Source: Candidatus Omnitrophota bacterium (GTDB taxonomy: Bacteria > Omnitrophota > Gorgyraeia > Gygaellales > Profunditerraquicolaceae). Taken from it: DNA of 64,000 bases. This document shows, piece after piece, positions 1,583-45,900 of this stretch. The stretch is taken from the NCBI GenBank assembly GCA_043812955.1, contig JBDRLN010000018.1, forward strand, positions 13,849 through 77,848. Reading direction: 5' to 3'. Each line of letters starts with the position of its first letter. The stretch's first letter is position 1. The position numbers and the translations under genes were made by a program. Under the pieces are notes generated by a model. It saw only the letters and a program-made list of their open reading frames with translations, searched no databases and was not told the DNA's origin.

Positions 1583-3199
1583 CTACTGATGGACTCGATA
1601 ATCTATTTCCGGGAAGATATTATCTTTGTATTCGATTTCCGTTAGCCATTCCTGGTCAATGGAATTTGACTTTATGTCTTCGTATAGGCGTGTAAAATTC
1701 AAAATGTGGTCTTTGGTCCTGCGGACTGCATAAGAAGTATGCGTTCCCGTGCCCATGATAAATGCCCAATCTGAACTCTGGGCCAAAAGTAATTCCCGTA
1801 AAGCCTGGTTTAATGCCCTTTTAAATAAACCGTTGGTATTAGAATAGGACCTGACGAGCTCAGTCATTCGCCCGGATGCGCTATGTAAATGCCGGTAGAT
1901 CCAGTCATTCGAGCCCTGCAGCCACATCTCAGAATAACCCTTCCATCCCCAGCTGGACATCGAAGGAGTAATCACCTGGTTACGCGGATTCTCAGCCAAA
2001 TATTCCGAAGGCGTAATCAACCGTATTATATCCTGATCACAAGAGATCTTACGGATCAGAAAATCCAACCACTGCGGGCCTTCATACCACCAATGCCCGT
2101 ATAATTCTGCGTCATAAGGAGAAATTATCAAAGGTTTCTTGCCGATAAAATCATTCAGGTATTCAACCTGCTTCTGGCGGTTAAACATAAAATTCCCGGC
2201 GTGTTCCGCGCACTTTTCAGTGGCCCATTCCGGGACATAAGGCTCTTTGTGGTTTCCCGTACCGGTTATACGATAATATTTTATCCCAGTAGCAATCCTT
2301 ACTCCGTCAGGATGGATATAAGGCCGGATGTAATTATACTCGCAGTCAAAACCGATATCCCGGTAGAATTCCCGGTAATTATAATCCCCCGGATAACCTT
2401 CGATCGAAGACCAAACCTGCTTGGAAGATTCCAGGTCCCTGCTAAAGCAGGCAACACCCGTGCCCTTGCAATACACCGGGGCGAATACCCCGTATTTAGG
2501 CCTGGGAGTGCCGTGTAAAACTCCGTGGGCATCGGAAAAAAAATATTTTAGGCCTGCCTCTTTTAGGATCTCATCCTGGCCCGGCTGAAAACCGCATTCC
2601 GGAAGCCAGATGCCCCTGGGCCTTCTGCCGTATACGCTCTCATAATGGCTGACAGCTACCTTGACCTGAGCCCTTACTGATTCTTTACAAACATCCATAA
2701 GCGGAAAATATCCATGGGTTGCCCCGCAGGTAATGATCTCCAGTTTTCCCAGGTCCTGAAACCTCTTAAAAGCCATCGCTAGATTCCTCTTGTATTTTTC
2801 AAAAGTATCCCTGGCCCGGCAAAAAGTATTCAGATACATTATTGCCAGACGTTGAAATTCCGGCTGCCAACTAGTCCTTTCTATTTCTTTATGGGCCAGT
2901 TCGATCAGCCTATTGATATGTTTTACATAGCGTTCCTGCAAAAGCTGGTCGCAAAACATCGCGGTCAGGGTCGGGGTTACCGACATGGTAATCCTAAAGT
3001 CTATTTTGTCTTCCATTAATTTTTCGTAGACCCAGATCAGTGGCAGATAAGTTTCAGTGATCGCCTCATAAAACCAATCTTCCTCCAGAAAATCCTCGTG
3101 TTCAGGATGCCGGACATAGGGGAGATGACTGTGCAGGACTAAACAAAGGTATCCTTTATTAGACATGTCTATCTTTCTTTTTTTTTCACGGATTCTCAC
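1583..3199 (-). CDS. glycoside hydrolase family 57 protein (alpha-glucan branching enzyme / amylopullulanase-like)
   Basis: 538 aa carrying the GH57 N-terminal signature LVLHSHLPYVRH. The alternative start MSNKGY at 3165 would give a more typical N-terminus. Confidence 0.75.
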   Translation of the reverse strand: MRIREKKRKIDMSNKGYLCLVLHSHLPYVRHPEHEDFLEEDWFYEAITETYLPLIWVYEKLMEDKIDFRITMSVTPTLTAMFCDQLLQERYVKHINRLIELAHKEIERTSWQPEFQRLAIMYLNTFCRARDTFEKYKRNLAMAFKRFQDLGKLEIITCGATHGYFPLMDVCKESVRAQVKVAVSHYESVYGRRPRGIWLPECGFQPGQDEILKEAGLKYFFSDAHGVLHGTPRPKYGVFAPVYCKGTGVACFSRDLESSKQVWSSIEGYPGDYNYREFYRDIGFDCEYNYIRPYIHPDGVRIATGIKYYRITGTGNHKEPYVPEWATEKCAEHAGNFMFNRQKQVEYLNDFIGKKPLIISPYDAELYGHWWYEGPQWLDFLIRKISCDQDIIRLITPSEYLAENPRNQVITPSMSSWGWKGYSEMWLQGSNDWIYRHLHSASGRMTELVRSYSNTNGLFKRALNQALRELLLAQSSDWAFIMGTGTHTSYAVRRTKDHILNFTRLYEDIKSNSIDQEWLTEIEYKDNIFPEIDYRVHQ

Positions 3200-3290
3200 G
3201 GATTTATTATACGGATTTTCACAGATTATCCGCGTAAATTTATCCGCGTAAATCCGTTATTTTATCCGTGTATATCCGTGTCAATTCAAA
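3176..3290. repeat. Intergenic repeat family D, copy 1 (ACGGAT / ATCCGCGTAAATCCGTTATTTTATCCGTGT iterated motif)
   Basis: TTTTTTTTCACGGATTCTCACGGATTTATTATACGGATTTTCACAGATTATCCGCGTAAATTTATCCGCGTAAATCCGTTATTTTATCCGTGTATATCCGTGTC; a near-identical block lies at 14741-14812. Confidence 0.6.
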
Positions 3291-5668: not shown

Positions 5669-6952
<1,284 letters not shown>

Positions 6953-6982
6953 TTAATTATTGCCTTGCATTAATAAAAGGTA

Positions 6983-7056
6983 CAGGTAAAGGTATAGGTA
7001 GAGATTTTGTCTTTGTTTTTCTTTACCTATACCTCTTCCTCTACCTACTTCTATAT
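6983..7056. repeat. Intergenic imperfect inverted-repeat family F, copy 1 (AGGTAAAGGTATAGGTAGAG ... CTTTACCTATACCTCTTCCTCTACCT)
   Basis: Lies between the purA start and the LeuA-like gene stop. The same architecture recurs at 11848-11925. Confidence 0.5.
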
Positions 7057-11806: not shown

Positions 11807-11847
11807 CGCGTTAATCCTCCTTACTTATCTGTTAAATATAATCTAGG

Positions 11848-11925
11848 CATAGGTAAAGGTGTAGGTATAGAAAAATTTACGCCTTAAAAAATGCTTTACT
11901 CTACCTCTACCTTTTCCTTTACCTT
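11848..11925. repeat. Intergenic inverted-repeat family F, copy 2 (GCATAGGTAAAGGTGTAGGTATAG ... CTCTACCTCTACCTTTTCCTTTACC)
   Basis: Same GGTAAAGGTRTAGGTA ... TACCTMTACC architecture as 6983-7056, here between the serA start and the aminotransferase stop. Confidence 0.5.
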
Positions 11926-13091: not shown

Positions 13092-13124
13092 CCACCCCGT
13101 AGGTGTCTTACACCTACGGGGTGG
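13092..13124. repeat. Repeat family C hairpin, perfect 14-bp stem (CCACCCCGTAGGTG tctta CACCTACGGGGTGG)
   Basis: Intergenic between the clpP stop and the aminotransferase start. An identical copy lies at 22698-22730, and diverged in-frame derivatives sit inside the giant gene at 31268-31294 and 61111-61150. Confidence 0.8.
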
Positions 13125-14718: not shown

Positions 14719-14740
14719 TGGTTGCTATTCTCCTTCTTTT

Positions 14741-14812
14741 TTTTACACGGATTTCCGCGGATTATCCGCGTAAATCCGTTATTTTATCTGCGTGTATCCG
14801 CGTTTTACATCC
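14741..14812. repeat. Intergenic repeat family D, copy 2
   Basis: TTTTTTTTACACGGATTTCCGCGGATTATCCGCGTAAATCCGTTATTTTATCTGCGTGTATCCGCGTTTTA, nearly identical to 3176-3290 and likewise just upstream of a minus-strand gene start (tig). Confidence 0.6.
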
Positions 14813-16958: not shown

Positions 16959-17930
16959 TTAAACCAGACCTGCCCTTAACAAATCCTGGATATCCAAGAG
17001 CCCGACCGGCTTATTATTTTTATCCACAACCGGGATTTCGTCAATCTTTTTTTCTTCCAGGATACGCATGCCTTCGGCAGCCAGCCTATCCGCAGTAATC
17101 ACTAAAGGATCCTTGGTCATTATCTCTTTGATCTTACGCCGGGTGAGATTAACATCCTCCTCTAAATGCCGGCGCAGGTCTCCGTCGGTAAATATACCAA
17201 CGAGCCTCCCTTTATTATCCACTATTGTGGCTGAGCCTGCCCTGGCCTGGGTTATTTTAAGTAAGACTTGAGAAACTCTCATATCTTCACTGACTACAGG
17301 GCTGGCTTTTCCAGTGCGCATAATATCGCTTACCTTTAAAAGCAGGCGCTTGCCTAAAGCCCCGCCGGGATGAAAAAAAGCGAAATCCTTCTCCTTAAAA
17401 CCTTTTAGTTCCAACAGACAAACTGCCAAAGCATCCGCCATAGCCAAAGCAGCGGTAGTAGACGCGGTAGGAGCCAGACCTAAAGAACAAGCCTCTTTTT
17501 TAACCGACACATCCAAAACCGAATCGCTATATTTTGCTAAAAGAGATTTGAGATTTCCGGTAAGGGCTATGACCTTAGAGCCTATTTTTTTTAAAAGCGG
17601 CATTAATTGCCTTAATTCTTCGCTTGAGCCGCTATTAGAGATTATTATTACCACATCATCGCAAGTCACTCTGCCTAAATCACCATGAACTGCCTCGGTA
17701 GTATGCAAAAATAAACTGGGAGTGCCTGTTGAAGCTAAAGTAGCAGAAAACTTCTGGGCGATAATACCGGTCTTGCCCATTCCGCTGACCACAATCCTCC
17801 CCCTGGCCTTAAACATTAGGTCCAGGGCTTTTGTAAATTCATCGCCTAGGCGAGATTTTAAAACCCTGATCGCCTCGATCTCAATATCCAGGACTTCTCT
17901 CGCTCTTTTTATAGTATTCATTCTATACAT
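16959..17930 (-). CDS. kdsD: arabinose-5-phosphate isomerase (SIS domain + tandem CBS)
   Basis: 323 aa with the SIS motif VVSGMGKTG, followed by two CBS-like repeats. Confidence 0.88.
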   Translation of the reverse strand: MYRMNTIKRAREVLDIEIEAIRVLKSRLGDEFTKALDLMFKARGRIVVSGMGKTGIIAQKFSATLASTGTPSLFLHTTEAVHGDLGRVTCDDVVIIISNSGSSEELRQLMPLLKKIGSKVIALTGNLKSLLAKYSDSVLDVSVKKEACSLGLAPTASTTAALAMADALAVCLLELKGFKEKDFAFFHPGGALGKRLLLKVSDIMRTGKASPVVSEDMRVSQVLLKITQARAGSATIVDNKGRLVGIFTDGDLRRHLEEDVNLTRRKIKEIMTKDPLVITADRLAAEGMRILEEKKIDEIPVVDKNNKPVGLLDIQDLLRAGLV

Positions 17931-17933
17931 GAT

Positions 17934-18045
17934 GACACGCTGTCCTATCTAATCGGGACACGCTGTCCTAACTGAAGCGGAAACAGTGTCCCCTTTGACT
18001 TGGACAGCGTGTCCGCTTTAGCTCTAACAGCGTGGCAGGGATTCA
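17934..18045. repeat. Repeat family A cluster: iterated imperfect palindrome GGACACGCTGTCC / GGACAGCGTGTCC with flanks (CTAATCGGGACACGCTGTCC ... AAGCGGAAACAGTGTCC ... GGACAGCGTGTCCGCTTTAGCT ... ACAGCGTGGCAGGG)
   Basis: Fills the whole kdsD-kdsA intergenic space. Units of 40-65 nt nearly identical to it occur in-frame in the giant gene at 26208-26280 and 59308-59372. The plus-strand ORFs 18000..18275 and 18032..18283 are just translations of this element. Confidence 0.8.
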
Positions 18046-18864
18046 GGGATTCAGGGATTTTTCTATGCTTTTTACCTGCCTTAATAAACTCTCCAGCTCT
18101 TTCAGATCAATCATATTCGGCCCGTCGCAAAGAGCCTTCCCCAGAGAAACATGCACTTCTAAAAATAACCCATCGCAGCCAAAAGCTACAGCTGCCCGAG
18201 ACAACCCTGAAACAAATTCTCTCTGGCCTCCGGAAGAAGTGCCTTTTCCTCCGGGAAGCTGGATACTATGGGTAGCGTCATAAATTACCGGATAACCAAA
18301 CCCCCGAATTATTGCCAGGGAGCGTAAATCGGAAACTAAATTATTATAACCGAATGAAAAACCTCTCTCAGTGATCAGAATGGATTTATTCCCAGTTGAT
18401 TCTGCCTTTCTGATGATCGGCTGGATATCCCAAGGCGCTATAAATTGCCCTTTCTTAATATTAACTACCTTGCCACTTTTGGCTGCCGCTACCACTAAAT
18501 CAGTCTGACGGCATAATAAAGCCGGGATCTGGATTACGTCCAAAACTTTACTTACCTCAATAACTTCCTTCTGGCAGTGCACATCGCTTAATACCGGAAC
18601 TTTGATCTTTTGTTTTACCTTATGTAAAATATCCAAACCCTTTTTTAATCCCGGTCCTCGATAAGACTCTAAAGACATCCGGTTAGCCTTATCAAAACTG
18701 GACTTAAAAATAAAAGGTACGCCCAGTTTCACCGTGATATCTTTAATCCTGCGGGCCGCGTCTAAACAATTAGTTTCGGATTCAATAACACAAGGCCCGG
18801 CAATCAACGCTAAAGGATTGCCCCCTCCGATTTTTATATCCTGTATTTTTACGACTCTGGTCAT
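18043..18864 (-). CDS. kdsA: 2-dehydro-3-deoxyphosphooctonate aldolase (KDO-8-phosphate synthase)
   Basis: 273 aa with the LALIAGPCVIESE N-terminus and the KASFDKANR motif. Confidence 0.92.
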   Translation of the reverse strand: MTRVVKIQDIKIGGGNPLALIAGPCVIESETNCLDAARRIKDITVKLGVPFIFKSSFDKANRMSLESYRGPGLKKGLDILHKVKQKIKVPVLSDVHCQKEVIEVSKVLDVIQIPALLCRQTDLVVAAAKSGKVVNIKKGQFIAPWDIQPIIRKAESTGNKSILITERGFSFGYNNLVSDLRSLAIIRGFGYPVIYDATHSIQLPGGKGTSSGGQREFVSGLSRAAVAFGCDGLFLEVHVSLGKALCDGPNMIDLKELESLLRQVKSIEKSLNP

Positions 18865-18958: not shown

Positions 18959-19714
18959 TTATTTCTTTCCTGTTTCTGCCTTAATATATTCTTCTACTCT
19001 TACCAGATCCTCAGGCGTATCTACACCAATAGTATCGTACTTAGTTTCCACAACCTTTATCCGGTAGCCTTCTTCCAAAACCCTCAGCTGTTCCAACTTT
19101 TCTATTCTTTCCAAATTTGACGGCGCCAGGTTCTTATATATAAAAAGAAAATCTTTGGTGTAACCGTATAAGCCGATATGTTTATAGTAGCTTGGTGAAT
19201 CGACTTCTGAATTTAGGGCCTTAAAAGGTATGACGGCCCGGGAAAAATAAAGGGCAAAATTATTCATATCTACAACCACCTTGACTATATTCGGGTCGTT
19301 TATAAGCTCCTGATTTTCAATTTTTTTCATCAGCGTAGCCATAGAAATTGATTTATTCCCCAGTAATGCCTGAGCCACGCTGTCGATCATAGTAGGGTGG
19401 ATCAAGGGCTCGTCAGCCTGAATATTTATTATTACCTTTACATCTAAGGGATTAACTACTTCAGCTATCCGGTCACTACCACAGGCATGGTCCTTGGAGG
19501 TCATTACTACCTTGGCCCCGAATTCCCGGGCCTTTTCAGCTACTTTCTCCTCATCGCAGGCAATAATTAAATCATCCAAAAGCCGGGATTTTTTAGCCCT
19601 TTCCCAAACATGCTCTAACATAGACTTGCCGGATATCTCAGCTAAAACCTTCCCTGAAAACCTGGCGGAAGAATATCTTGCCGGTATTACTCCTATTACA
19701 TCCATATTTTCCAT
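18959..19714 (-). CDS. kdsB: 3-deoxy-manno-octulosonate cytidylyltransferase (CMP-Kdo synthetase)
   Basis: 251 aa with VIGVIPARYSSARFSGK and IINIQADEP. Confidence 0.9.
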   Translation of the reverse strand: MENMDVIGVIPARYSSARFSGKVLAEISGKSMLEHVWERAKKSRLLDDLIIACDEEKVAEKAREFGAKVVMTSKDHACGSDRIAEVVNPLDVKVIINIQADEPLIHPTMIDSVAQALLGNKSISMATLMKKIENQELINDPNIVKVVVDMNNFALYFSRAVIPFKALNSEVDSPSYYKHIGLYGYTKDFLFIYKNLAPSNLERIEKLEQLRVLEEGYRIKVVETKYDTIGVDTPEDLVRVEEYIKAETGKK

Positions 19715-22697: not shown

Positions 22698-22730
22698 CCA
22701 CCCCGTAGGTGTCTTACACCTACGGGGTGG
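22698..22730. repeat. Repeat family C hairpin, second perfect copy (CCACCCCGTAGGTG tctta CACCTACGGGGTGG)
   Basis: Identical 33-mer to 13092-13124, sitting in the divergent msbA / comFB-cheR intergenic region. Confidence 0.8.
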
Positions 22731-24957: not shown

Positions 24958-27900
24958 CTACGGCCTAATAGCAATAAATCTCATCCCTCCATAATAAAAA
25001 GTATTATACATATCATTAATCGCCTCGATTACCCCTATTTCTTTGAGGCTTTCTACATCAATCGGTTTAATATCAAGCCGGGGGTTAACACTTTTTAACT
25101 GTTCAAAATCAAACCTGCGGCCTTCATTTTTAACCAAAGCCAAAGCTATTGTTTTATATAAAATCCGGAAATTATTACTAATGGGTATCTTATTATAATT
25201 ATTTCTGCTAATTACCTTTGTTTTAAGCGATAATTCCTCCATAGCCAAATGATTAATTCCGTCGACATAACTCTTATCAACCATATCAGCCATCATAATA
25301 TCGTTTTCCGCCTCCTCAAATAACAGATTGAGTTGTGCCGCGTCTTCCTGGCTGAGGGCTTTACCTAAAATCCATCTTAATTCTACTTTAAACAATAATT
25401 CTTCAACCGATAACAAGGCCAGACTAGCTTTAAGATGAAACCCCCGGGCAAAATACCTGCTGGCATAAGAATCACTCTGCATTATCTCGGCAGTATATTC
25501 CGGAGTAAGCGCTAAGTTTATTTTTTCCTTAGCCTCGGAATATTTACCCTGTCGATTTAAGGCATCGGCTAAAATTATATGGCTTAAAACCAGCCAATCC
25601 TGTCTTTTATGATTCACCAACCATCTCTTAAACTTTAATAGTTCTTTTGCGTTATTTTCTATCTCCTGATTTAAATATACGCCTCCTACGTAGAACTTAT
25701 TTTTAGTCGACATTTTATCCAGATATTGGATTTTTTCAAAAATATACCTGGTCCGATTATCAGCGCCCTTAGACAAGCGGACTGCTTCATCAAAATCCGC
25801 TAGACACTCTTTAAGATTGCTTTTATCAAAATTAAGTATGGCCCGGATATAATAAGCTACCGGAGAAAAAAAATTCGGCGTATTGATAATCTCTTCGAGT
25901 TTATCAAAAGCCTCTTTAGTAAATCCTCTTTTTTTCTCGGCCAGTTTAAGATAAAAATCTTTCATTTTTATATCCTGCGGGTCATATTTAAATAGCTCGC
26001 CCAATAATCCTAATGCCAACGGATAATTCTTCGGTTCTCCTGATATAAGTTTTGAATTAATGATCCGGTATAATTTTTCCTTGTGCTTGTCAACAACCGG
26101 CGACGACGAGGGACACCCTTTCAGCCAATCGAGGGACACCCTTTCAGACAATCGGGATGATGTCCCCTGCTGTTTTACATCCAATACCATAGCCACCAAC
26201 GCTCCCATTCCTTGCCACGCTGGCAAACCTAATCGGGACACGCTGTCCGAGCCAAAGCGGACACTGTGTCCTAGAGCGGCCGGCGAGCTAGAACAAATAT
26301 TAGCTACTTCTGCAAGAAACCTTAATGTTTTTCTAAACATAATCTTGCCCACTCTATCCTTGCACCAAAGCGCCTTGCCAATATCCAAAGCCAAGGGATT
26401 ACAATCAAGCTTCCTTCTCTTTACATTAGAAAACCAGTCCTTCTGTAATTTGGCATAGTCAGACCCGGTAAATTCAATTTTCCCCATGAGCTTGACATTA
26501 ATAGTATTTAAGTCAAACTGTTCATCTTTGCTATTAAATACGTGGCCGTGGCGCCACATAGTTTCATCAAAGTATGTCCTGATAAACAAAATAACAGGCA
26601 AGTGTTTAAGGTCTTCTTCTGCGGCATCAAATTTATTTTTAATTTTCTTCATGCCTAATAGGAAAACCTCAAGTATCATCTCCTCTAAGAACTTCTTAAT
26701 ATTATTTTCTTCTATTCTGTTGCTTATAATATAAACATTGCCGTAAAATTGCTTAGAGTCGCTTTCCATTATTGAATTAAATAATGACTGCGGCATGCCG
26801 TGAATACCTATATCAGGCAATCTTTCAATTAATTTTTTTACCTGGATTTGATCTTGCCGTAGATTATTTTTAACAGCCGGCGAGCTTCCAACGCAAAGCG
26901 TATCGCCTGCCTGCCGATCAGGCAGTAATCCGTCACTTCTTCTGGCGGAAGACTGCGCCACCGGCAAGGCGGCCGGCGAGCTGGAGCGAAACGTACCCCG
27001 CGACGAGGTAGTTCCGTTTAATCCCGTATTATTTAAAGCCGCAAAGGGAAAGGTATATTCTTCTTCTATTTTCACCTCAAAATCCGCCAACCTCTCCTGC
27101 GCTTCTATAACGCATCCTATCCTGGAATTACTCTCATCCAGATCAACCATCTCTCCGACTAAAATTATCCTTTTCACTCCCAGTTCAAACTTTAATATCC
27201 ATCGTAACCTATCCCAATTTGTAGATAAGCCAACCGGGCAAGCCATCCCTTCCAATTCCACGGGCTCCAAATCATCTAAATAAGTATTAATTAAAATCCC
27301 GTATAAATTATATTTTCTAAATAATTTACCTGCCTCTGTCAATAAATCCATCTTTGGCTTTAACCTGATTGTACTTTTAATATAACGCTGGTCTCCTATC
27401 CCGGCGAATATGGGCCCAGGATAAGACCGGACACGATCGGATAACCTATGAATAAAACTCCGATAACCTCTAACGGCATTCCCTCTTATTGCTTTCCGCA
27501 GTATCAAGGGGACTCTCTTAAAATTCCTGCTGATATAATCATCTAACACATTTTCAAAAAATAACGGGTGGCTCCATAATATAATCTCGTGATTATTCCG
27601 CGAAATACTCCGCCGTAATTCCTCTGAGGCTAAAACTGTGGATATCGGGATAAGCCTTTGACCATTGCCTGCAGGCGGACTGGAAGGTTTAGGCCCTAAC
27701 CTATTGACGCTCCGATCAGCTACAAATTTGGAGGCAAACCCCAATAAAACCCTACCTAACCTAAGGAATTTAACCGGCGAGCTTCCTTTCGGCACTGGCG
27801 AGGCGGAGGTTTTTTGGACTAAGGGAACAGCTGTGCCTGCAGATTTACCCAGCTGATAAATATATCTAAAAGCCTCATCTGGATTGTCACAAGAACTTAA

Positions 27901-30900: not shown

Positions 30901-33900
30901 CATTTTCTCGCTAGCCATATTTTCTAATGCCTGCGGGCTTTGAACTGTGATGCCTAAACCGAATCCATTAAACATCTCGGCATTAATCCCAAACGTCCTA
31001 GCGGCAAAATAGGAAACAAAATAATCATTGCCGATCGAATTATATAGGACATTGCCTCCTAAGACCCCCATTTTTTTCAGGAGATGTAATATTGTAATAT
31101 AGTGTATAAGGGCGTTATCTAATCTTAACTTGTCATACTTAATATAGTCTCTAGTCCTTAACCATGTTAACGTTTGCCGGTCTAAATGAATTTGGTCAAG
31201 TATCCTTTCTATGTCGTTTTCGAAGAATAAACGGTAGAAATATTCCTCATCTAAAGGCGAGCTGGACCCATTTCCACCCCGTAGGTGGAAATGGTTTGCG
31301 GCTGGCGAGCTTCCGACACAAAGCCTGGCGCTTGCCTGCCGGTCAGACAGGGATCCGCCACGTATTGTGGCGCGGGGCTGAAGCACTGGTTCCTCAAACC
31401 AATTCACTATCAATCTACGGGTTCCCGGGATCATCTCGCCACCATTGATGAGAGGGCTCGATGTCGAGGCGGAACGCTTATCCATTAACATTACCTCCGG
31501 GAAACCTTCACTCAGGAATTTTGCCAAAGTTTCAACTGCGAGCTCCGCATCTTCGCCTTCTGCAATAAGCTTTACCTGGGCTGCGCTTATCCATGAATCA
31601 ACGATAGCATCCGCAACCGCTGCCAGCGAATCCAGTATTTTTTTAAGATTTACGGTTTCATTTTTATGTTCTATATAGATACGGGATAAAAATTTATTAG
31701 CTAGCGCCACTAAATTGCTGATATCATGTTCGTGTACTTCTTCGCAATTATCAACTATACATATTTTTTCTATCCTTTTCAGAGTATTTTCTTCAGGTGA
31801 AGATTTTACCGGCGAGCTGGATATAACAAAACTGCTACTATTTACTTCTGCCATTTTCACTTTATCTAATTTATAATAAGTTGTATATACGGGATCAGGA
31901 ATATTAGAAACAATTCTAAAGGGATCTGATTTTTGAAAAATTAATGGGATGCCTAATCCGGCATTATAATTTACTATTTTCAAACCTTGATGTGGTATAA
32001 ATTTAAAATCTCTTCCCCAAACCTTTATACTCCGCAAAATTGTTTTAGGTTTTATGCAAACTAAATTTGCAAATCCTACTCCTTCCGGTTTCAGCCTCCT
32101 TTTAAGAACATTGTAAACTTCCACTCTATCTTTGAAATATTGGCCAACATTATACCCAACCACAAAGATATCAAATAGGCCGGCCCCCAGAAATAATTGG
32201 CCCTCGTTCAAATCCCGCAAAATAAAATTATTCCTAAGGTGTTGAGAGTATCTTTCCGCCCTATCTAGGTCTATTTTCACTCCTAACCTTTGCATAAATC
32301 GGCCGGCTATACTATTTGCGTCTATTTCAACGAGATCATGCTTCGCTAAGGAGTAAAAACTTATCCCCTCTATATTTATTCTTTCTTTTACTTCCAGCAA
32401 AAACATTAATTCAAAAAGTTCATAACCCCTGCCCGGGCCGACCCATAAAATACTGATTTCGGGATTTCTTTTCATACTTTTTTTAATTCTGCTTAAAATT
32501 GACTTATAGAGATGTCCGTCGAATGCTTGGTTAATCTCCCTGAAAAAGTGGCTAATATAACCTTCAGGATAGTTAATCATCGGCGAGGCGGCGGTATTGT
32601 TCCTTATGGCCGAATTGCGACCGGAATGAATCGTTTGATTGATGGATTCATTTTTTGACTCAATGCCAGACAATGGGCTAGATACAGCGTCTACATCTTC
32701 TTTTTTGCTTAAATTTGAAGATATCGATGAAGTAAAGATAAGCCTGTCCACCCAGAAAAAAATCGCCGCGCCGATTAAATTAGCTATGACCGTCGCAAAT
32801 AAGCTGACGCCTAACCACCAGACAACCAACCACAAAACAGGGGTACTCAACTGCCAACGGATAAGATAAAGAATAAACCTTTTTATTGATAGCCCGCTGT
32901 TCGTTTTTTCTGCCGGATTGCTGGATTCTTTCTCTACAGGCGAGGCGGCGGCATATATGTTATTGATTATAAAACTGGCTGAATAAACGGCAGGGTTTAA
33001 AAACGCAGCTTTAAAAATTAGCAGCGGCTTTGGACCTGCCCTGATAGGACAGCTATCCATCAGCGGACTTGAACCGGAGTTTTCCGTAGAATTATCGGTT
33101 AATGTAATAGCCTGGGCCAAGCTCTTGCCTTCCCAAAGTAACCTGGCTACAAAATATTTGGAAGGTACATCGTATGGAAAATAATAATCCAGCGCTCCAT
33201 ACAGCATCTTTCCGTATTTATAAGTCCAAACCGGTTCTCTTGATAGGTTATCCCATAAACTCACCCTGCTCGCATCCAGTAAATATTTCTGCAATATCCC
33301 TACCGGGACAGCGCTGGCGATCAATTCACCTTCTGAGATATATTTACCTTCGGTTTCGGAAGATTTAATCATCTGAGATAATAACCTTTTTTCTTCTAAG
33401 CGTATAAGATTTATTAAATTCGGCAATCCTTCCCGATGAGCCTTTCTCAATTTTCCTGGCCATAACGCGTGAATAAATTCATGGGCAACAGTTAGTTCGG
33501 AATTTAACTCTACTAAATCTTTTGACCAAAGTTTTCTCCGTTTAACCAATATAGTCCAATTGCCAAGCACGGACTTATAAGCTGTCCCTAAACCCGGACA
33601 ATAACCTCTACCTCGACAAAAATCATGTAGCCGATATTTTACATGCATATAAAAATACAAAATAATCGTAGAAATAGCGATGCTGATTAGGATAGAACTA
33701 AATTCGTTGTCCGGGATTAACCCAAAAGGCTTAATTATAAATTCAGCATATGCCCAGAAAACCGTAAAAGCAGGCAACCCCAACAATAAAAACCCGGCTA
33801 AAAAAATAACCGACTCGCCGATAAAACCTACCATGTTTAACCATGAAGTACGCGGCGTATACGGTCTAACCGTAATTGCCGAAATAAATTTTTTAATTTC

Positions 33901-36900: not shown

Positions 36901-39900
36901 GTAGCCCACTCCTTTTTCCAACCTCTCTTCTTTAATACCGAAATGCCGGAATAAACCCGGCTGCTGCAGATAAACATAATATTCATTTACTGAACGCTCT
37001 AAAGCTCTTCTTAACATACAATAAATAAGAAAAGAGCCCAATCCTTCATTCCAATAATCTTCTTTTATCTTTAAATAACTTTCTCGCTCGTGCCCCATTT
37101 TGAGCTCATTTATAAGAATATAAAATAAGATATTTCCTACTCGCGATTCTTTAAAATCAGGCACGTCAACTTTTAGAATTAAATAATGAAATTGTTCACC
37201 TTGGCTTAAATTGATAAAGGTGCGCTTTTCTCTTACTATAAACATCCCTTTCCTGTTTTTTATGCCTCCAATTAGCCTGCCGTCTATCGCCTTAAGCGTG
37301 ATCTGCCTTAGCGCATACTCAAGGCCGTTTCTTTCAACGCCTGAATTGCCCGCCGGCGAGCTGGAAATTGTATTAAATTCTTGGGGACTAAATAGAATCT
37401 TTACGTCCGCGCCCCGATACAAACAGATCCCTTCTCTCCTTCTTATCGTCCGTCTGTTTAACTCTAAACCATACTGTTTCTTATAAATATCTTCCGCTAA
37501 ATCAGCAACTAAATAAGGGTTCCCGGGAAGGAAGTAGTAATCTGGGCCGAATTCTACTAAGATATCGATCATATCTATAAACAGCCTATTTAAACCCGCG
37601 CTATTTACGGCTTTTCTCAAAATAAAAAACTGGGCATAGGCATATTTATGAAAACCTGCGTCATAGATTGTGTTTGAACTTATAAACTTAAACGCTGATT
37701 TAAAAATACAATATGTGAATTCATTTCTTTGCTCCTGTCTAATCTTTAGTTGATTTAGTAGGACAGCCGCTGTAAATTCTGCAACAAATTCCTGTAATCC
37801 GGCAAAGGCTCTATATTTTGAATCAACGGAAAGCGGATTAGAATTATCCTTTAATTTTACAATAAACGATTGATTAGGGAAAAGAGCGTAAAGCCAATTA
37901 TGGCCTATTTCATGCGCGATTATTCTTAGGATTCCTTCAATACCATGGCTCAAATAATAGCCCTTAAGCCTGGCATAGTCATATTTAAAATTCGCGTTGG
38001 CTGTTCCACGATAAGAACCTATATCTAAATTCTGTATAATCTTTTGCGTAATACGCCTAACTATCGCGGGCGTAAATAAGGTATCTAATGACAATAACTG
38101 TACCGAAAGCGCAATATTCCACCCCAATAACTCTTCTTGAATCATTTTTAGCGTATTGTATTTAAAATACCGGTCTATCTTTTCTCGATACTCCATAGAT
38201 ACAAGTTTCTCGTTCAAATCACTCCTTACCAGATCGATTGAACGCCGTAGCAAAAAATTGATCCGCGAATTAATTAATAGGATTAGTTGATGGGTTCCAA
38301 CTGGCCATTTACCAGTTGCCGGCGAGCTGGCCTGCGGCGCCAGCGGCGAAGAAACAAATTCAAATTCTGATGGGTTTCTTTGGACCTTGATTCTTACACC
38401 AAGATGATCCGAGGCCAAGAAGATTCCTCCTTCATTTTTTATAACTTTTAATCCCTCAAATAGTTTCTTTAAACGTTCCTGATTCACTTCATCTGTTTTA
38501 AATAAAGAACGATACTGGGATATATACTCGTTAAAGGTGGGTTTAATGGTAACCGTATCAACAAAATCTCCATTCTCTGCCCAACGAAACACCCTAAAAA
38601 CAAGATTATAAATATACCAAAGAAACATTATCTCTGGATTTATCGCTGCTAACTCATCATCTATGACTTTATAACTACTCTTAAGCCTCCCATCGGGAAA
38701 TTTTATTATCATTTTATTAACATACCCTACAAATTTGCTTACCCTCCATTCAGACACCGGCGGGCTTGAGTCGAGAACCTCATTTTTTTCTATTTCTACA
38801 AATATTTCCGGGTATAGTTTCTTTAACCATGGCGTAATTTGTACGTCATTTTCTTTATAGATCACCTTAAATCTCTCTCCCAATTCTTCCGTAAATGGCA
38901 ATTGCATGCGGCCATCCGCCAAAGAATGGCCCCTAAGTATGAGCTTAAGCGCTGCGTCAGTAAGTTTAAGGCTAACTTTCGGATTTTCATTTTTATAATA
39001 TAGACTTAAAAGATACCAAACTTCACCGATATATATCGGAATATTTAAAGATTCATGATAAGACATATCTGGCTCTCTTTTTATTACCTCATCCGCGCAA
39101 TAGTTAAACATATCCACAATTAAATCTTCCGGCAGCTGACATAGTATAACGAAAAGTTCTTTATGTACGCTTTCACTTTCTAAAAATAGATAATATATAT
39201 TACTAGGATCAATATAATAATAAGCTTTCATGACTTCCCTTACCCACCTTGCCGTACTTTCATAGTCACCCCCTATCTTAAGATTGCGTAGTTTATCCTC
39301 TATTTCTTGAATAGATATTCCTTTGGGTGGAAAAAGATACCGTCCCTCCTTTAAAACGCTCATATCAGGCGTTCCCCATTTCCATTCCCGCTGCCGCCAA
39401 TAGGGATGCATATTAGTCTCAACCGGCGAGGCGGCGGTTTCACTCCTGACCCTGCTTTCATCCGCCGGCGAGCTGGCATAAAGCGTAGATGCCGGTATTA
39501 TTTTTCCGTCTACGGTTGCATCATTACCGCTAACCAATAAAGCAGAATAATCTCTCCGCAGAGAACCAGTAATGGCTCTGTGAAGATGTGCCGGCAAAGG
39601 CACCTCTTCACCCTGTTCTATCAAAACATTCGTAAAAAATATGGCTTCTGCTCTGTGTTGCGTTAACATGCCACTCTGCGCCGGATCTAAGAGATCGATA
39701 TATTTCGGCTCTACCAACGCGCGGATGTTGTTTTTCAAACGACAATAACGCGTGTCGTCCTTTACGATTTCGAAAAAGATATCAAAGTTTTCTTGTGTTA
39801 TACACTCGCAGACATAGGCAAGCTTATAAATACCCATTTTTACCGCGTATAAAAGCGGTATATTTTTATCCCAAGCCTCTATTCCTATGCTCCATGGTAA

Positions 39901-42900
39901 AGAAATAGCAAGGTTATCTTTCGCACGCAAACCTCCCCGTTTACCATAGAGGGCCATCAGGATAGAGTACGGCTGGTCTCCGCGCGAACAACCCAGGGAT
40001 TTTATGGTGAGGTGAAAATCTTTTTTCTTTTGTTTTTCTGGTACGAGCATATTGAGAAAGTTATCTAGATTCCATCGGTCAACGAATCTAAACAATGTCG
40101 ACATTTTCTCAGCTTCATTCAAGGGCACAAAACCGTTAAAAATCGCTCTGGTAATATAGCGGCGCTCTGTAGCATGGTCAGCCCCTGTTTTTTCGAGTAC
40201 CTCCAGATACCCGGTCAAATCGGTCTTCCAAGAACGGGCGCGCGATGCAATAAAATCCTGACATACCTCTGCCAGAAAGACTGGCAGCTCGACAGTAGCA
40301 AGACGGAAACTAAACACGGGTATTGTTTGATTTATGAACTGAGACAGATAATGCAAATCTTCGCCATTAAGAATAAAACGGATAACTTCCTCTGTTTTTT
40401 TATCCGCCGGCGAGCTCCCGCCACAAGGCGTGTCGCCTGCCTGCCGATCAGGCAGGGATCCGCCACGTATTGTGGCGGAGGACTGATCCACCGGTGAGGC
40501 GGCGATCTTAGTTAATTTATACACAAAGATACCGCCAAACGGAGCACTTAAGACGTGGAAACAATCTAAAACAGAATGCCTAAATTTACCTTTAAGTTCT
40601 TTGGCTAACCGCAAAGCAGGCGGATACTGTGAACGTAAATCCGGATAAGGTATTATAATTGTGCCATTTTTCTTAAGGAAGCCGGGAGACTCGGTAATGA
40701 AACGTGAGGTTAACCTGAATTTAGGATCGTGCGTAGCAAGATGTTCCGGTTTCTCAATAGGCATATCTACGAAAGGCGGATCAAATATTATGTAATCAAA
40801 TTTTCTGTCATTAGGAATGTTAGAAAAAAGATCGCTTACGATAGCTTCTGCCTTGTCTTCCAAGCCGGTAATTCTAAAATTCAGGTTAGCATTATCTACT
40901 TGCTCTTTGAATGCGTCAACCGCTAAAACAGAACCGCCCTTCAAGGCGGCTATTATAGCTTGAATGCCGGAGCCTGTGCCCATATCCAAAACTTCCTTAT
41001 TCCTGAAATCCGCCTTATTGAACAGCGCGTTTGCTAATATTGCGGTAATTAACATATCAGGTGGGTATGTTCCCGGAAAACTAACGATTACCGGAACCGG
41101 TTGGTCCGGGAAATACCTTTTGATCCCAAAAACGATTGTGTTTAACTTGAATTGGCGCTTAGTTACTGAAACTACATCCTCTGATTGGCCGGCCGGCGAG
41201 CTGGAGTGTTTCTTTTTTAGGATCTTTTGTTCAAAATATTCTTCTATTATTAATGCCGGGTCGACCGGCAAACTGGATAATTTACTAGGGTTGTCCGCCC
41301 GCAAAACGGCGTCCTGATTAATATCTATCGATACATAAGAATCAGTGTGACTTTTTGATTCACGTAGAATTCCTACTAAACACTTAACAATAACGGTTGG
41401 AATGGCAAAAATTAAATAGAAGGAAAGATAGAACTGCCAGGTAAAATAAGGTTCGGCTGCCACAAGATATAAATCTAGAATAAAAGCCGTAAGCCAGGGG
41501 ATAATGATCAACTCTGAACTCGTAGACCAGTACGTAGAAATAAATTTTAAAACAATAGGATTAATCTTTTCTTTAGAAAAAGATATTTGGATTTCTCCTT
41601 TGAAGAACAACGTCAGAAATGTTTTTAAAGAGATTGATTCCCAAATTATTTCTTGCGGCAATAATTTCTTAAGAGTAAAGGGGATGTGCAAGATTCTCCA
41701 AAGGTTAAAAGTTATCCAAGTTGAAATAAAAAGTGAGCCAAACATTCCATATGTCAATATGAGCGGGCTTTTAAAATTCCAGCCATTAAACCAAAATAGA
41801 AATATTAGATTCGCACTTCCAACAAAACCGCCTACTTCAATCAAAGAAGGCACCATGATCTGGCCTATAAACCACCCTATCTTCGGCAATCCGAATTTCA
41901 TAAATAGTTTTTGAAGGTAGGAATAAAATCGTTGTAAGAACGGCCAGCCAATGAATACTACATTGACTCTTGGTATATTGGAACGGCCAACCGGAGAGCT
42001 GGAGGGGCGCAAATAAATTTCTACCACTGATTTCAATATTTCTATTTGTTTTTGTTCCGGCAATGTAAAAAGGTAGGGATTAATTAAAAAACGTGTTAAG
42101 GAACGGTGGGCTATAATAATATATTCCGGAGGTGCGGTAGCCATATGATAACTAGTCAATATTAAACGATTTTTTAACTTTTCCTTCATGCCGGAGACAG
42201 CGCCGGCATAATTATCGCCATATAATAAATAAATTGATTTGGGTAATCTTAACGGCCCCATTACACTCAGTTTAGAACATTCCTCTTGGACAAATGTATG
42301 GATTATGTCAACCCTAACTCCGAACTTTTGAATTAATCTGCCTGTTATTATATTAATATCAGCAGCATCTACCCTCTTCATCTTTGGCCATAATCTAACA
42401 GATAATAATTCAGTTAACGTTGCCAATTTTATCTTATCATTATTATCTTTGGAAATTTCCGCCGGCGAACTGGAATAAAATAGCTCCCATAAACCTTTTA
42501 TCCGCTCATCTACAGAGACTGCCCGACTTCCGATAAACCAAAGACTGCTCTTTCGGGCATTAGGAAATCTATCATAAACAATACATTTACCTATCCTGAT
42601 AGAATCTCCGATTGCTTTCTTATTTTCTCTAAGCCATCCTGCTAATGAATCGTCATACCTGGATGAATCTTCAGCAAAGATTTCTTTATATGCCCCTGCT
42701 ATTTTGCTAAATTCTTCCTCTAGAATACCAAACCCCCCAGGGTTAGCTGTAATAGGCAACATAAGATAAAATTGCGCGCCGGGCTGATTTTCCCTGTATT
42801 TATGTGCAGCTATACTTTTAATAGCGTTAGCAACGCAGGTAGTTAGGTTACATCCAAATATAATAAAATGTTTCCCGGCAAAGAATTCTTTACGCAGCTC

Positions 42901-45900
42901 GAATTCACCTGCCCCAATCCATCCGAAAAATTCGTTTGATATATTGGATTTTTCCTCAATAATACGGTTGTCGTCAACGTTTTGCATGACCTCTAATTTA
43001 TAATTAAACCCGGTAAACAAATCACCAATCTTATCTGCCATCTTATCTGCCCTAGCAATATCCAGTTTGCTTATCAGGCCTTCCGTATGTACTCCTATAA
43101 CCCTATAATCTTGCGGGATAAATAAACGCTTTACCAGCGGCGAGGCGGCAACAGGTGAGCCGGGAAAACCGTTATTTACAGCTTGAGTAATACTATTTAA
43201 AAAATCCCGGTTGATAAACGCATTTTCTTGAACAGGTAACAGCCGGCTCAAAATCATCCTTAATATAGCTGGATGAATATTTTCCTCTTCCAAGGTGGAA
43301 ATAATCCCGTAAACCATCAGACGTTCTCTTAAAGCCATGCCTTTTTTGGTACGTGCAACAAGGCTGACTTGCGTTGCTTCCTGATACCGCCGCATGGCTT
43401 CTAACACCGTAATTGCCCCTAATCCTTTCTGGATTGGGCTCCCAAGCTCAATACATAATAAACGAAGTTTATCTATATCGTAAGAATAGTCGAGCCAGCT
43501 TATCACTTTATTATTTTCTACCTCCATTACTTCTAACCTGCTTATTCCATTTGGCTCAGGCCCGTTATGCGCGGGGTAAAAAACATTTAAAAGTATATTT
43601 TTAGCTAGCTCTGCCGCACCATTATTAAACCGAAACGTGGATCCTTTATAAACATCCTGCCAGAGATGTTTCCACTGGCTGAGTCCACTAGAAAGATACT
43701 CCGCTGGCGAGCTGGACTGGCTTACGCCTCCCCGAGCCATTTTTTCCGCCCAAGCCTTATTGAGCACTCGTTTTATTACAGGTATACCTTCTGCGGGACA
43801 ATAATTCTTAGATTCGGCAGCTATAATACCTTTTATTTTTATACCTCTTGCTTCCAACGCCATAAATAGCTGGCGGGCTTCCTGCAATAAGATATTCTCT
43901 GGAATATCAACTCTTCGCCCAATTATCTGCCCAGTATTGTCAAAATCTATAGCCCAAGTCCCTTTGTGAAGGAAATAATCGGAACAGATACTTACCCAAG
44001 CTGGTTCATCTATATCGGGCAGTTCACGAAAAAAACTCCTCACTGTAATCACTTTAATCCCTTCAATAAACCGTCTTGGCACTTGCTCTATCTGATAAAC
44101 GGGATGGATCAGAAAATAATCTTTTATCTGTCCCGTAATTTCGCCTTTGGTAACCCAATTACTTTCGGTTCTAAAAAATGGCTTGTTAGCTTTTATAGCT
44201 TCGTGGATTTTATGGTCTCCTCTATCCGCATGAAAATCAAAGATTAAGACAATTTCGTCTTGTCCAAGCATATCCAGTGTTTTATCATGGGTATCAACAA
44301 AGATTATGCCTGAAGAAAACATAACTTCCACCGGCGAGGCTGAACTATTAAGCACCTTAACTTCATATAAGAAAACAGGATGAGAAAAACTTGTATCTGC
44401 GATTTCAACCTTAACTAATTTTGCGATGCCGCTCCGGGAAAGCACTCTTATTGTTTCTTTTTCTGCTGTTCCCAATTTATCGCCTAATATTGCGGCGCAA
44501 AAAGTCTGGCCGGTATATATAAAATCAAAAACATTACTCATAAACGGAATATTCCGGACATCCGCCTGCGCAATAAAAACTCTAGAGCGCTCTTCCCCTG
44601 TAAATTTATTTAACTCCTTGCGCAAATTACGGATATTTTTATCCCAAAATTCAATTACGTATATTTGAACATCGGGAGCGGTTATTTCCAATAAATATTT
44701 TACCTCTCCCAGCGTAGGGCCGGGTCCTATCACACATATACGCTTAACACCCTCCGGAAGATATTTAATCGTTGTTTTAATAAGGCTATGTACAAATGAA
44801 CGCTCAGGAAAGAAATAATCTAAGAGGCTTCTTCTATAATAGTAACGGCCGGCAAGTCCCGGGTAATCCCTTAAATTATTCCTTACCGGATCATTGTATT
44901 TTTTAAAAATCGGCGAGGCCGCGGAATATATGTTATTAATTATAGTGTTGGCCGAAAATACGGAATGGCTTATAAGAAATGTATTTTGCGGATTTTCCAC
45001 ATTAATAACAGGGCTGCTGGTTATTTTCTCTATTTTCAGGTGAGTTGTTACTGCGCCTTTTACACCCCCCTGCATGATCCTTCTTAGAATATTTTCGATG
45101 GCTTTTTTGTCTTCGGGGTATATGATTCTTTCTAGCAGTCTTTCCAGCCAAACAACAGATTCCTTAACGCGTAATAAATATAAGCTATCCACCGCAGAAA
45201 ATACTTCTTCCCTGTTGCGAACAAGGTCGGCTTCCAACATCCGCATTAAACAGCTAACTATCTGTGCTTTTTCTTTATCATTTAGCATATTGTTAAACCA
45301 CTTCCTAAAACTAACCCTTATCTTCTTTTTTGCATCTTTCATTGGTGCCCTATCAAATAAATAAGGTATAGCTATATTTCGAAACAAAAATCTTCTTAAA
45401 TCTTCATCATTCGGAATTTGTAGATCTTTCTTTTCTTTCCGCAGTAAATTCCTTATATTGCTGACATCTTCAACGCTTAATCCCTGGCCGTGCGCCTTAA
45501 AAATTGAAGCCAAAAATAAACTCAACCATGTTTCTTTTTCAAGCCCCTTTCTTCCGATCCCTAAATTGTTTAATCTCTTCAGATAAAGTTCTGGATTAGA
45601 TATTGGAGATTTGGTCTGCGCCAGCGGCGAGCTGCTGAAAACAGGCAGATTGATTTTATACTGCGGCTTGCTTCTTACTTCTTGGCCAACAACAAAAGTA
45701 AACCCGTCAGGAAGGATACTGCCTATTCTGGTAACCAATGTTTCAAAGATAAATTTGTAATGCTTAGAAATATCATCTTCTTTTAATCCTATCTTCTTTC
45801 TTATCGCATCTATTTCTTTAAATGTAATTTTGTCCTTTTTTTCTGAAACAAGCTCAACTGAATGTATTCGCCAATTAACCGTTAGCCGAGCTATGTACTC

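Follow-up and report, generated by a model that had tools for sequence, protein, structure and literature searches.

A palindromic repeat with 23-nt phasing in the kdsA-kdsD spacer and in frame within a giant gene of an Omnitrophota bacterium

Stem-loops formed by repetitive extragenic palindromes (REPs) in Escherichia coli affect the decay and the translation of transcripts. Other modular repeats, such as the pneumococcal BOX elements (composed of boxA, boxB in varying number, and boxC) and the Correia elements of Neisseria, resemble miniature transposable elements with inverted repeats (MITEs). REPs and bacterial interspersed mosaic elements (BIMEs) are found in Proteobacteria and other phyla; known REPs provide stop codons, cluster head to head and are also located inside genes, e.g. 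in Opitutus terrae, a bacterium of the Planctomycetes-Verrucomicrobia-Chlamydiae (PVC) group (PMC3733652). Rickettsia palindromic elements (RPEs) insert in frame in genes (PMC10969869, where BOX elements are also mentioned). In this study, we analyzed a palindromic repeat, here called family A, in a stretch of 64,000 nucleotides from a Candidatus Omnitrophota bacterium (GenBank assembly GCA_043812955.1, contig JBDRLN010000018.1, positions 13,849 to 77,848 of the forward strand; hereafter the window), where it fills the spacer between the genes kdsA and kdsD and occurs in two blocks in frame inside a giant gene. Family A is conserved far more strongly than neutral DNA, and with a probability of about 0.55 we consider it an undescribed small repeat of the REP/BIME/MITE or RPE kind that belongs to one Omnitrophota clade and is selected at the level of the nucleic acid.

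The family A unit consists of a palindrome of 13 nt, GGACA-N3-TGTCC (stem 5 bp, loop 3 nt), and a 10-nt spacer commonly ending in AAAGC, AATCG or AAAGG; a terminal variant of the core reads TGCCA-N3-TGGCA. Searching the window for GGACANNNTGTCC with at most one mismatch gave nine matches, whereas 0.55 were expected from dinucleotide shuffles and none of 100 shuffles reached nine. Eight of the nine matches lie in three clusters with start-to-start distances of exactly 23 nt, namely in the kdsA-kdsD spacer (core starts 17933, 17956, 17979 and 18002, with a degenerate fifth unit, TAACAGCGTGGCA, at 18025-18037), around 26 kb (26236 and 26259, preceded by a TGCCACGCTGGCA unit at 26213) and around 59 kb (59332 and 59355, preceded by a TGCCACGCTGTCC unit at 59309). 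Loosening the search to two mismatches brought no gain over background in the window. Tandem Repeats Finder independently detected a period of 23 at 59312-59360 and at a degenerate pair of units at 26107-26154. A chance origin of the three clusters is ruled out by the shuffle test. Also, a CRISPR-like array (clustered regularly interspaced short palindromic repeats) was rejected on reading the sequence, as repeats of 13 nt and spacers of 10 nt lack the length for it and different copies have spacers in common.

An earlier note on this DNA had described the two genic blocks as nearly identical to the intergenic copy, at about 90%. The repeat itself is real, while the similarity is lower: the reverse complement of the spacer copy matches the two blocks with 83% over 66 nt and 81% over 63 nt, and only the best sub-blocks reach 87-100%. 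The opposite orientation which it ascribed to the intergenic copy holds only in a relative sense, since this copy has the structure of an inverted repeat, its arms (17933-17984 and 17986-18037) being 71% complementary. The strict 23-nt phasing, the hairpin architecture of the spacer copy, and the genic single arms at a fixed distance from a junction word are features beyond that note.

The intergenic element (17933-18037, minus strand) has its five cores at 17933-17945, 17956-17968, 17979-17991, 18002-18014 and 18025-18037, separated by 10-nt spacers, and covers 105 nt of the 112-nt distance from the kdsA stop codon to the first ATG of the kdsD open reading frame (ORF). The description of this spacer as filled by iterated GGACA-N3-TGTCC units was thereby borne out, and Pfam confirmed both genes: kdsA (18043-18864, minus strand; DAHP_synth_1), whose stop lies 5 nt upstream of the element, and kdsD (KpsF/GutQ; 16959-17921 within the ORF 16959-17930, minus strand; SIS and CBS domains). 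Comparison with a relative and the NCBI product of 320 amino acids (aa) place the true kdsD start at the second ATG (17921), 12 nt downstream of the element. On the transcribed minus strand, which carries all genes around the cluster, a terminal TGCCA-type unit is followed by a forward unit (loop CGC), a central unit (loop CUG) and two inverted units (loop GCG), so that forward and inverted units can pair over the full 13 nt. The ends of the 105-nt copy, TGCCACGCTGT... and ...ACAGCGTGTCA, pair in all three known orthologues (in the window and in the relatives L092 and L028), i.e. terminal inverted repeats are present.

The RNA folding proposed as a check in the earlier note yielded a long predicted hairpin for the spacer copy with -52 kcal/mol and z = -5.73 against shuffles; the fold as single-stranded DNA has z = -6.5. 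The spacer copy of L028 is predicted to fold with -47 kcal/mol (z = -3.8), and contig L009 also gives z = -3.8. A consensus hairpin of 39 pairs is kept in the three orthologues, and the sole two differences between the window and L092 replace a G.U and a G.A by G-C pairs. In an alignment of 21 units, 87.6% of the cells are paired, and double changes from GC to UA and from AU to CG keep the palindrome; this within-unit covariation was reached by 2 of 500 shuffles and, as the units are mutually related, is suggestive only. The longest form of the unit is a perfect palindrome of 23 nt (L009, 2398-2420). The genic copies fold weakly (z = -1.3 and -2.3), little better than shuffles. An intrinsic terminator was ruled out for the spacer copy, since a scan gave no terminator-like site and no T run follows the hairpin (UCAUCAUGUAUAGAAUG in the window, UACAUAGAGGCGAGGAUG in L028).

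Relatives were gathered from public DNA scans, which provided L009, a contig of an Omnitrophota metagenome-assembled genome, and from KdsA homologues with their contigs. The same five-unit element is present in the kdsA-kdsD spacer of L092, the closest relative (identical in L093; kdsA 91.5% nucleotide identity), and of L028 (kdsA about 80%). Between the window and L092, 103 of the 105 positions are identical in register, whereas the identity of these two genomes is 81.7% for third codon positions and 80.5% for the other spacers (binomial p about 8e-8). The adjoining 60 nt on each side of the element have only the ordinary similarity of this pair, so that the high identity is not due to a recent local transfer. 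The window and L028 also stay in register without an indel, with 56 of 65 core positions and 24 of 40 spacer positions identical, compared with about 59% at third codon positions. The two L009 copies share 35 of 36 nt, spacer included; homogenization among the copies within a genome appears plausible.

The kdsA-kdsD site is empty in five relatives, where the genes are separated by 50 nt (L094), 17 nt (L030) or 35 nt (L032) or overlap (L095, by ATGA, and L031). With three lineages filled and five empty, the pattern departs from the kdsA tree: on the kdsA identity matrix, the empty L094 and L095 are nearer to the window than the filled L028, and L030, L031 and L032 are more distant. Such a presence/absence polymorphism requires gain and precise loss, gain twice at one and the same site, or lateral exchange. 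In L094, the empty spacer (6881-6930) holds short repeats of the GATAGTAG type in place of family A.

The kdsA stop codon differs between the filled genomes. In the window, it is made by an 8-nt tandem triplication (CAGGGATT three times, 18036-18059) overlapping the 3' end of kdsA. The relatives L092 and L028 are without this triplication, and their kdsA ORF reads into unit 1 of the element, with the stop inside unit 1 in L092 and a few bases past it in L028. KdsA homologues of 277-279 aa were considered as products of read-through into the element and were rejected, as their tails are unrelated and end in ...INEAITYGA.... Another gene around the element is kdsB (ORF 18959-19714, minus strand).

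Strong conservation of phased palindromes may also be read as a site array for a dimeric DNA- or RNA-binding protein (an operator, an iteron or a nucleoid-protein array), with the sites and not the hairpin under selection. The cores have a strict 5-3-5 palindromic symmetry, not one indel disturbs the 23-nt phase in orthologues which differ at about 40% of neutral sites, the cores are more conserved against L028 than most spacers (56/65 versus 24/40), overall conservation is above the need of a plain hairpin, and comparable 23-nt phased palindrome arrays occur in an unrelated metagenome-assembled genome (L007 and L016). However, no regulator or DNA-binding gene lies near the element, isolated single sites are missing from the promoters of the window, and a spacing of 23 bp puts the sites off one helix face. 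The locations of the sites are the spacer of two co-transcribed genes and a coding region of 39 kb, and for the latter no regulatory logic is obvious. Moreover, the half-sites of terminal units change together from GGACA/TGTCC to TGCCA/TGGCA; this double change keeps the pairing while a protein target would change, and it suits a hairpin at least as well as an operator. We regard a binding array as unlikely. The likeness of the core to a dimeric operator, raised in the earlier note, found no supporting evidence.

The comparable arrays are located at contig ends of a Tannerella sp. assembly (JAISOP01; L007 61-320, L016 157-450). There, 23-nt units with palindromic cores form arrays of about 300 nt in which the cores drift from GGGACAnnnTGTCCC to GTACAnnnTGTAC along the array, an architecture like that of family A in an unrelated phylum.

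As the earlier note had stated, both genic blocks lie in frame inside a giant gene; both are in one uninterrupted ORF of 13,005 aa. The 26-kb block (26209-26280, plus strand; 72 nt or 24 codons) contains units at 26213-26225 (TGCCACGCTGGCA), 26236-26248 and 26259-26271, and is translated from the minus strand as AALGHSVRFGSDSVSRLGLPAWQG (aa 12566-12589). The 59-kb block (59309-59377, plus strand) is a three-unit block as well, with cores at 59309-59321, 59332-59344 and 59355-59367 and the period of 23 reported above, and is translated from the minus strand as ...LILRHSVRFGSDSVSALAGTAWQ... (aa about 1535-1556). The translated contexts of the two blocks are ...HSVRFGSDSVSRLGLPAWQG... and ...HSVRFGSDSVSALAGTAWQG..., and their covariance-model scores are 84.2 and 80.6 bits, respectively. 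Each genic copy corresponds to a single arm made of a TGCCA unit, one forward unit and the central unit; three units measure 69 nt, a multiple of three. A covariance model of this three-unit arm recovered all known copies and a new one at L009 1436-1504, in an ORF that runs off the contig start; this copy reads ...GGSSSPVIQSHAARFNPDSVSRLALPAWQVGANV... and agrees with the two window copies in orientation and frame.

All three in-frame copies are in uninterrupted ORFs with no stop in the frame used, and in each of them the first core begins exactly 18 nt after the first base of a word coding for SSP (AGCTCGCCG/A or GCCTCGCCG). Core codons show no difference at any codon position among the three copies, L009 included, and the differences are confined to the 10-nt spacers. 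This argues for selection on DNA or RNA and not on the peptide. Conservation follows the unit structure of the DNA and not the codons.

In L092, the giant gene is homologous on both flanks of the 26-kb site and reads SSPV-GAVVSMVLDVKQQG..., with exactly 72 nt (24 codons) fewer. Among nine homologues of the downstream module (E < 1e-10 in a library of 1.84 billion proteins), none aligns over the 26-kb block; their alignments begin at the SSPV motif or at most about 14 residues upstream of it. Protein searches found no homologue of the giant-protein segment around the 59-kb copy and no match to the concatenated open translations of the spacer element. It is hardly credible that the peptide HSVRFGSDSVS.L...AWQG is itself a selected motif or linker and that the spacer copies are decayed coding fragments. 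The three in-frame copies do use one frame and keep the residues RF..DSVS.L..AWQ, as this would predict, but the conserved residues are those coded by the palindromic cores, invariant at three codon positions, and the variable ones fall in the 10-nt spacers. Also, the untranslated spacer copies are strongly constrained, a peptide of the HSVRFGSDSVS type had no match among 5.8 billion protein sequences, and the peptide is missing from orthologous and distant homologues of the flanking module.

The known family A set comprises seven loci in four genomes: three in the window, one each in L028 and L092/L093, and two in L009. The statement that the repeat occurs in coding and non-coding DNA and does not represent three chance matches is upheld by these further copies. 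A scan of a genome collection for GGACACGCTGTCC-N10-GGACA returned 22 matches, near chance by a rough estimate, with L009 as the only true relative. A metagenome scan with a 20-base pattern gave the same contig again (L026) and nothing further, and two scans of viral collections detected no relatives. At Rfam gathering thresholds the whole window had no match, and at E values up to 10 the spacer gave sub-threshold microRNA and snoRNA noise.

Like REPs and BIMEs, family A consists of short imperfect palindromes in direct and inverted orientation in operon spacers, including composite as well as single hairpins, copies at or over stop codons, presence or absence between strains, and some copies wholly inside ORFs. 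Its 13-nt core with a 5-bp stem and a 3-nt loop, extending to a palindrome of up to 23 nt, agrees with the short (20-40 nt) stem-loop palindrome typical of REPs. It differs from them in having no terminal GTAG/CGTC tag, no REP-associated tyrosine transposase (RAYT) seen in the window, units of just 13 nt arranged head-to-tail at a fixed 23-nt period (head-to-tail is rare for REPs), a very low known copy number, and orthologous copies conserved well above neutral. With BOX and Correia elements, which can alter the expression of neighboring genes, it shares small size, a non-autonomous nature, reiterated sub-units, inverted ends and stable RNA hairpins in transcripts. In contrast to these, it has no target-site duplication and no known cognate transposase, a sub-unit of 23 nt instead of the 45 nt of boxB, and another lineage as host.

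By description (Ogata et al. 2000, as summarized in PMC10969869), RPEs are likewise palindromic, are located between genes as well as in frame, and add a short peptide while the host ORF stays intact; in family A, three in-frame copies in uninterrupted ORFs stand beside spacer copies in four contigs. However, RPEs measure about 100-150 bp and reside in many unrelated housekeeping genes, whereas the genic family A copies are single arms of 69-72 nt directly after an SSP word, two of them at module junctions of the window giant gene and one in the truncated L009 ORF. Since in-frame palindromic repeats are known from Rickettsia RPEs and intragenic REPs (PMC10969869, PMC3733652), the earlier description of such a palindrome in coding and non-coding DNA as unusual was overstated. 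Family A is not filed as a member of the RAYT-type REPs or the MITEs, because it has no GTAG/CGTC tag, no target-site duplication and no transposase in view.

Several observations weigh against a repeat of this kind acting through a hairpin. Regarding mobility, no transposase or RAYT gene was detected among the scanned ORFs of the window, and no conserved GTAG or CGTC in 21 aligned units or their 5-nt flanks (AAAGC, AATCG, AAAGG). Target-site duplications, also proposed for checking by the earlier note, were not visible in comparisons of filled (window, L092, L028) with empty (L095, L094, L031) kdsA-kdsD sites, nor of the filled giant gene of the window with the empty one of L092; no direct repeat flanks the 26-kb block. 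Only the seven loci in four genomes were found, with three in 64 kb, two of which are intragenic, and a high copy number is not shown. The in-frame copies are alike in orientation, frame and distance to the SSP word, which favors common descent or site specificity over random insertion. Regarding structure, the support consists of thermodynamic prediction and conservation with very little covariation: the long helices of the 39-pair consensus contain no double compensatory change in the three orthologues, and the pairing partners in the minimum-energy long hairpin differ between the window and L028. The 10-nt spacers are, like the cores, near-perfectly conserved between the window and L092, which exceeds the need of a simple decay-barrier hairpin. 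An RNA-level role at the kdsA stop and kdsD start is suggested by position and analogy.

The kdsA-kdsD copy has supplanted the tight junction of most relatives (overlap or 17-50 nt apart) and has since stayed almost unchanged. On the reading of family A as a REP- or RPE-like repeat, the hairpin, transcribed in the kds operon, may act as a REP-like stem-loop, as judged from its position and from the known elements. Lying next to the kdsA stop or across it, with 12 nt between its end and the kdsD start, it would uncouple the two genes and/or affect decay or translation; it could shield the upstream transcript against 3' exonucleases and/or curb the translation of kdsD. Spread might have occurred via mobilization or a recombination route, with the copies being homogenized within a genome. 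The giant-gene copies, as single arms of three units (69-72 nt, 23-24 codons), would be unable to form the long hairpin and may ride as translated passengers in short fillers between protein modules, the peptide itself not being selected.

The giant ORF hosting both in-frame copies of the window (24958-63975, minus strand) has 13,005 codons without a stop and thus codes for at least 13,005 aa. The ORF opens within a methyltransferase domain, its residue 1 matching position 4 of the Pfam profile; the window has no in-frame stop farther upstream (63900-64000), and the true 5' end probably lies beyond the window. The product combines methyltransferase, glutamate-dehydrogenase, B12/radical-SAM, CheR-like and HPr-like domains in a mosaic, and the called product of the L092 giant gene has 46,785 aa. 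Multi-enzyme giant proteins of this class have already been described for Omnitrophota. The terms 'palindrom', 'linker', 'polyprotein', 'fusion' and 'intergenic' are missing from the two giant-gene preprints that were searched, and the one of 2026 also has no mention of 'recombination', 'junction', 'motif' or 'mosaic'.

The tripeptide [SA]SP occurs at 71 sites of the giant protein, while about 6 are expected. At 29 of these sites it is coded by AGCTCGCCG (17) or GCCTCGCCG (12), giving the nucleotide consensus gCCAGCTCGCCGGT (coding [SA]SSP[VAL]), which is limited to the giant gene and its coding strand, likewise in L092. Examples are window 26281-26290, 39466-39475 and 59377-59385, L092 640-2545, and L009 1406-1417. 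In coding sense, the SSP word AGCTCGCCGG (26281-26290, minus strand) is located immediately 5' of the 26-kb block and marks a breakpoint of homology to L092; the ASP word GCCTCGCCG (59377-59385, minus strand) is located 5' of the 59-kb block with the same 18-nt offset to the first core. The fillers between two SSP words make up about 5.5% of the giant protein and contain all five genic copies of the repeats that form spacer hairpins in the window (family A twice, CCACCCCGTAGGTG twice, GGGGACGTTTCTATTTT once). The degenerate pair of 23-nt units mentioned above (CGAGGGACACCCTTTCAGACAAT; 26107-26154, plus strand; period 23, 2.1 copies, 96%) lies in the same SSP-bracketed filler as the 26-kb block and is conserved in L092, where a weak covariance-model match was obtained at 2577-2645. 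In the BLAST comparison of the window with L092, homology stops at 26205, the edge of the family A block, and restarts at 39464, both edges being at SSP words, so that about 13.2 kb of the window giant gene replaces 1.9 kb in L092. SSPV is present at module edges in distant homologues, too.

In-frame recombination junctions are known from variable surface proteins: 17-bp repeats flank the Borrelia vlsE cassette, and Pneumocystis carries the conserved recombination junction element (CRJE) of its major surface glycoprotein (MSG) genes. The SSP word, not family A, resembles these as a short, nucleotide-conserved in-frame word at which coding modules differ between related genomes. However, a silent-cassette archive or switching is not shown here, and the modules resemble enzyme domains within a giant protein of the cytoplasm or membrane.

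Giant genes of this Omnitrophota clade might accordingly be built or diversified by in-frame cassette exchange at gCCAGCTCGCCGGT (SSP[VAL]), a speculative possibility in which family A and the half-hairpin fillers would be parts or footprints, e.g. structured recombination sites like integron attC hairpins, and the kdsA-kdsD copy would be off-target or a reservoir. Family A, its sibling half-hairpins and the SSP word would then form a recombination system moving giant-gene modules in frame, with the spacer copies as by-products or reservoirs. The position of all three in-frame copies exactly 18 nt after an SSP word in one orientation and frame in two genomes, the restriction of the five genic hairpin arms to the SSP-bracketed 5.5% of the protein, the breaks of homology between the window and L092 (about 13.2 kb versus 1.9 kb) exactly at SSP words, the nucleotide conservation of the word (17 and 12 of 71), and SSPV at module edges in distant homologues all speak for such a system. 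On the other hand, a hairpin arm is missing at most SSP junctions, no recombinase was identified among the scanned ORFs of the window, breakpoints at a short repeated word are also expected from ordinary homology-driven recombination, and the kdsA-kdsD copies are without an SSP word, save for GGCGAGG beside the L028 copy, which doubles as a ribosome-binding site. We consider a dedicated recombination system quite unlikely.

Further repeats were observed in the same DNA. The second family, CCACCCCGTAGGTG, forms a perfect 14-bp hairpin in two spacers (13092-13124 and 22698-22730) and is missing from the spacers of L092. In the giant gene (31277-31291 and 61118-61150), it is found each time between two SSP words, either as one arm or directly duplicated, and is translated as HPVGGRHPVGGKW or HLRGGN. 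The third family, GGGGACGTTTCTATTTT, is present as an inverted pair at 1469-1530 in the 1462-1582 spacer and as a single arm in the giant gene (52267-52290), in an SSPA...SSPV filler just before the B12/radical-SAM module. Other repeats of the giant gene are confined to fillers, at 26867-26973, 31292-31398 and 40397-40503 (peptide ...IRGGSLPDRQAGD..CVGSSPA) and at 32913-33002, 44886-44975 and 55932-56021 (peptide ...IINNIYSAASP). In L092, the CheR/msbA spacer (6040-6140) carries a modular hairpin with the forward-forward...inverted-inverted order known from family A, built of GGGGACAGCCTCCG units at a 22-nt period, and the window holds a CCACCCCGTAGGTG hairpin at this site. Similar hairpins of AGGTA/TACCT hexamer runs are located in two spacers (6976-7046 and 11844-11925). 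Motifs of the TTATCCGCGTAAATCCG type are repeated in two spacers upstream of minus-strand genes (3218-3281 and 14762-14803, also 3172-3204 and 14731-14763) and may be shared promoter or operator elements.

Family A provides a repeat under strong constraint at the nucleic-acid level both between genes and within an ORF, and the 26-kb site is a rare clean case in which close relatives differ by a repeat-derived indel of 24 codons within coding DNA. The giant genes of the uncultured Omnitrophota have recently become a puzzle. For the change of these genes, a testable idea is obtained, as modules of relatives differ exactly at a short in-frame word with repeat arms adjoining. If family A is only a REP-like passenger, it would be a modest addition to the catalog of bacterial repeats; if the repeat is indeed tied to module exchange, this would bear on the assembly of proteins of 10,000 to 50,000 aa.

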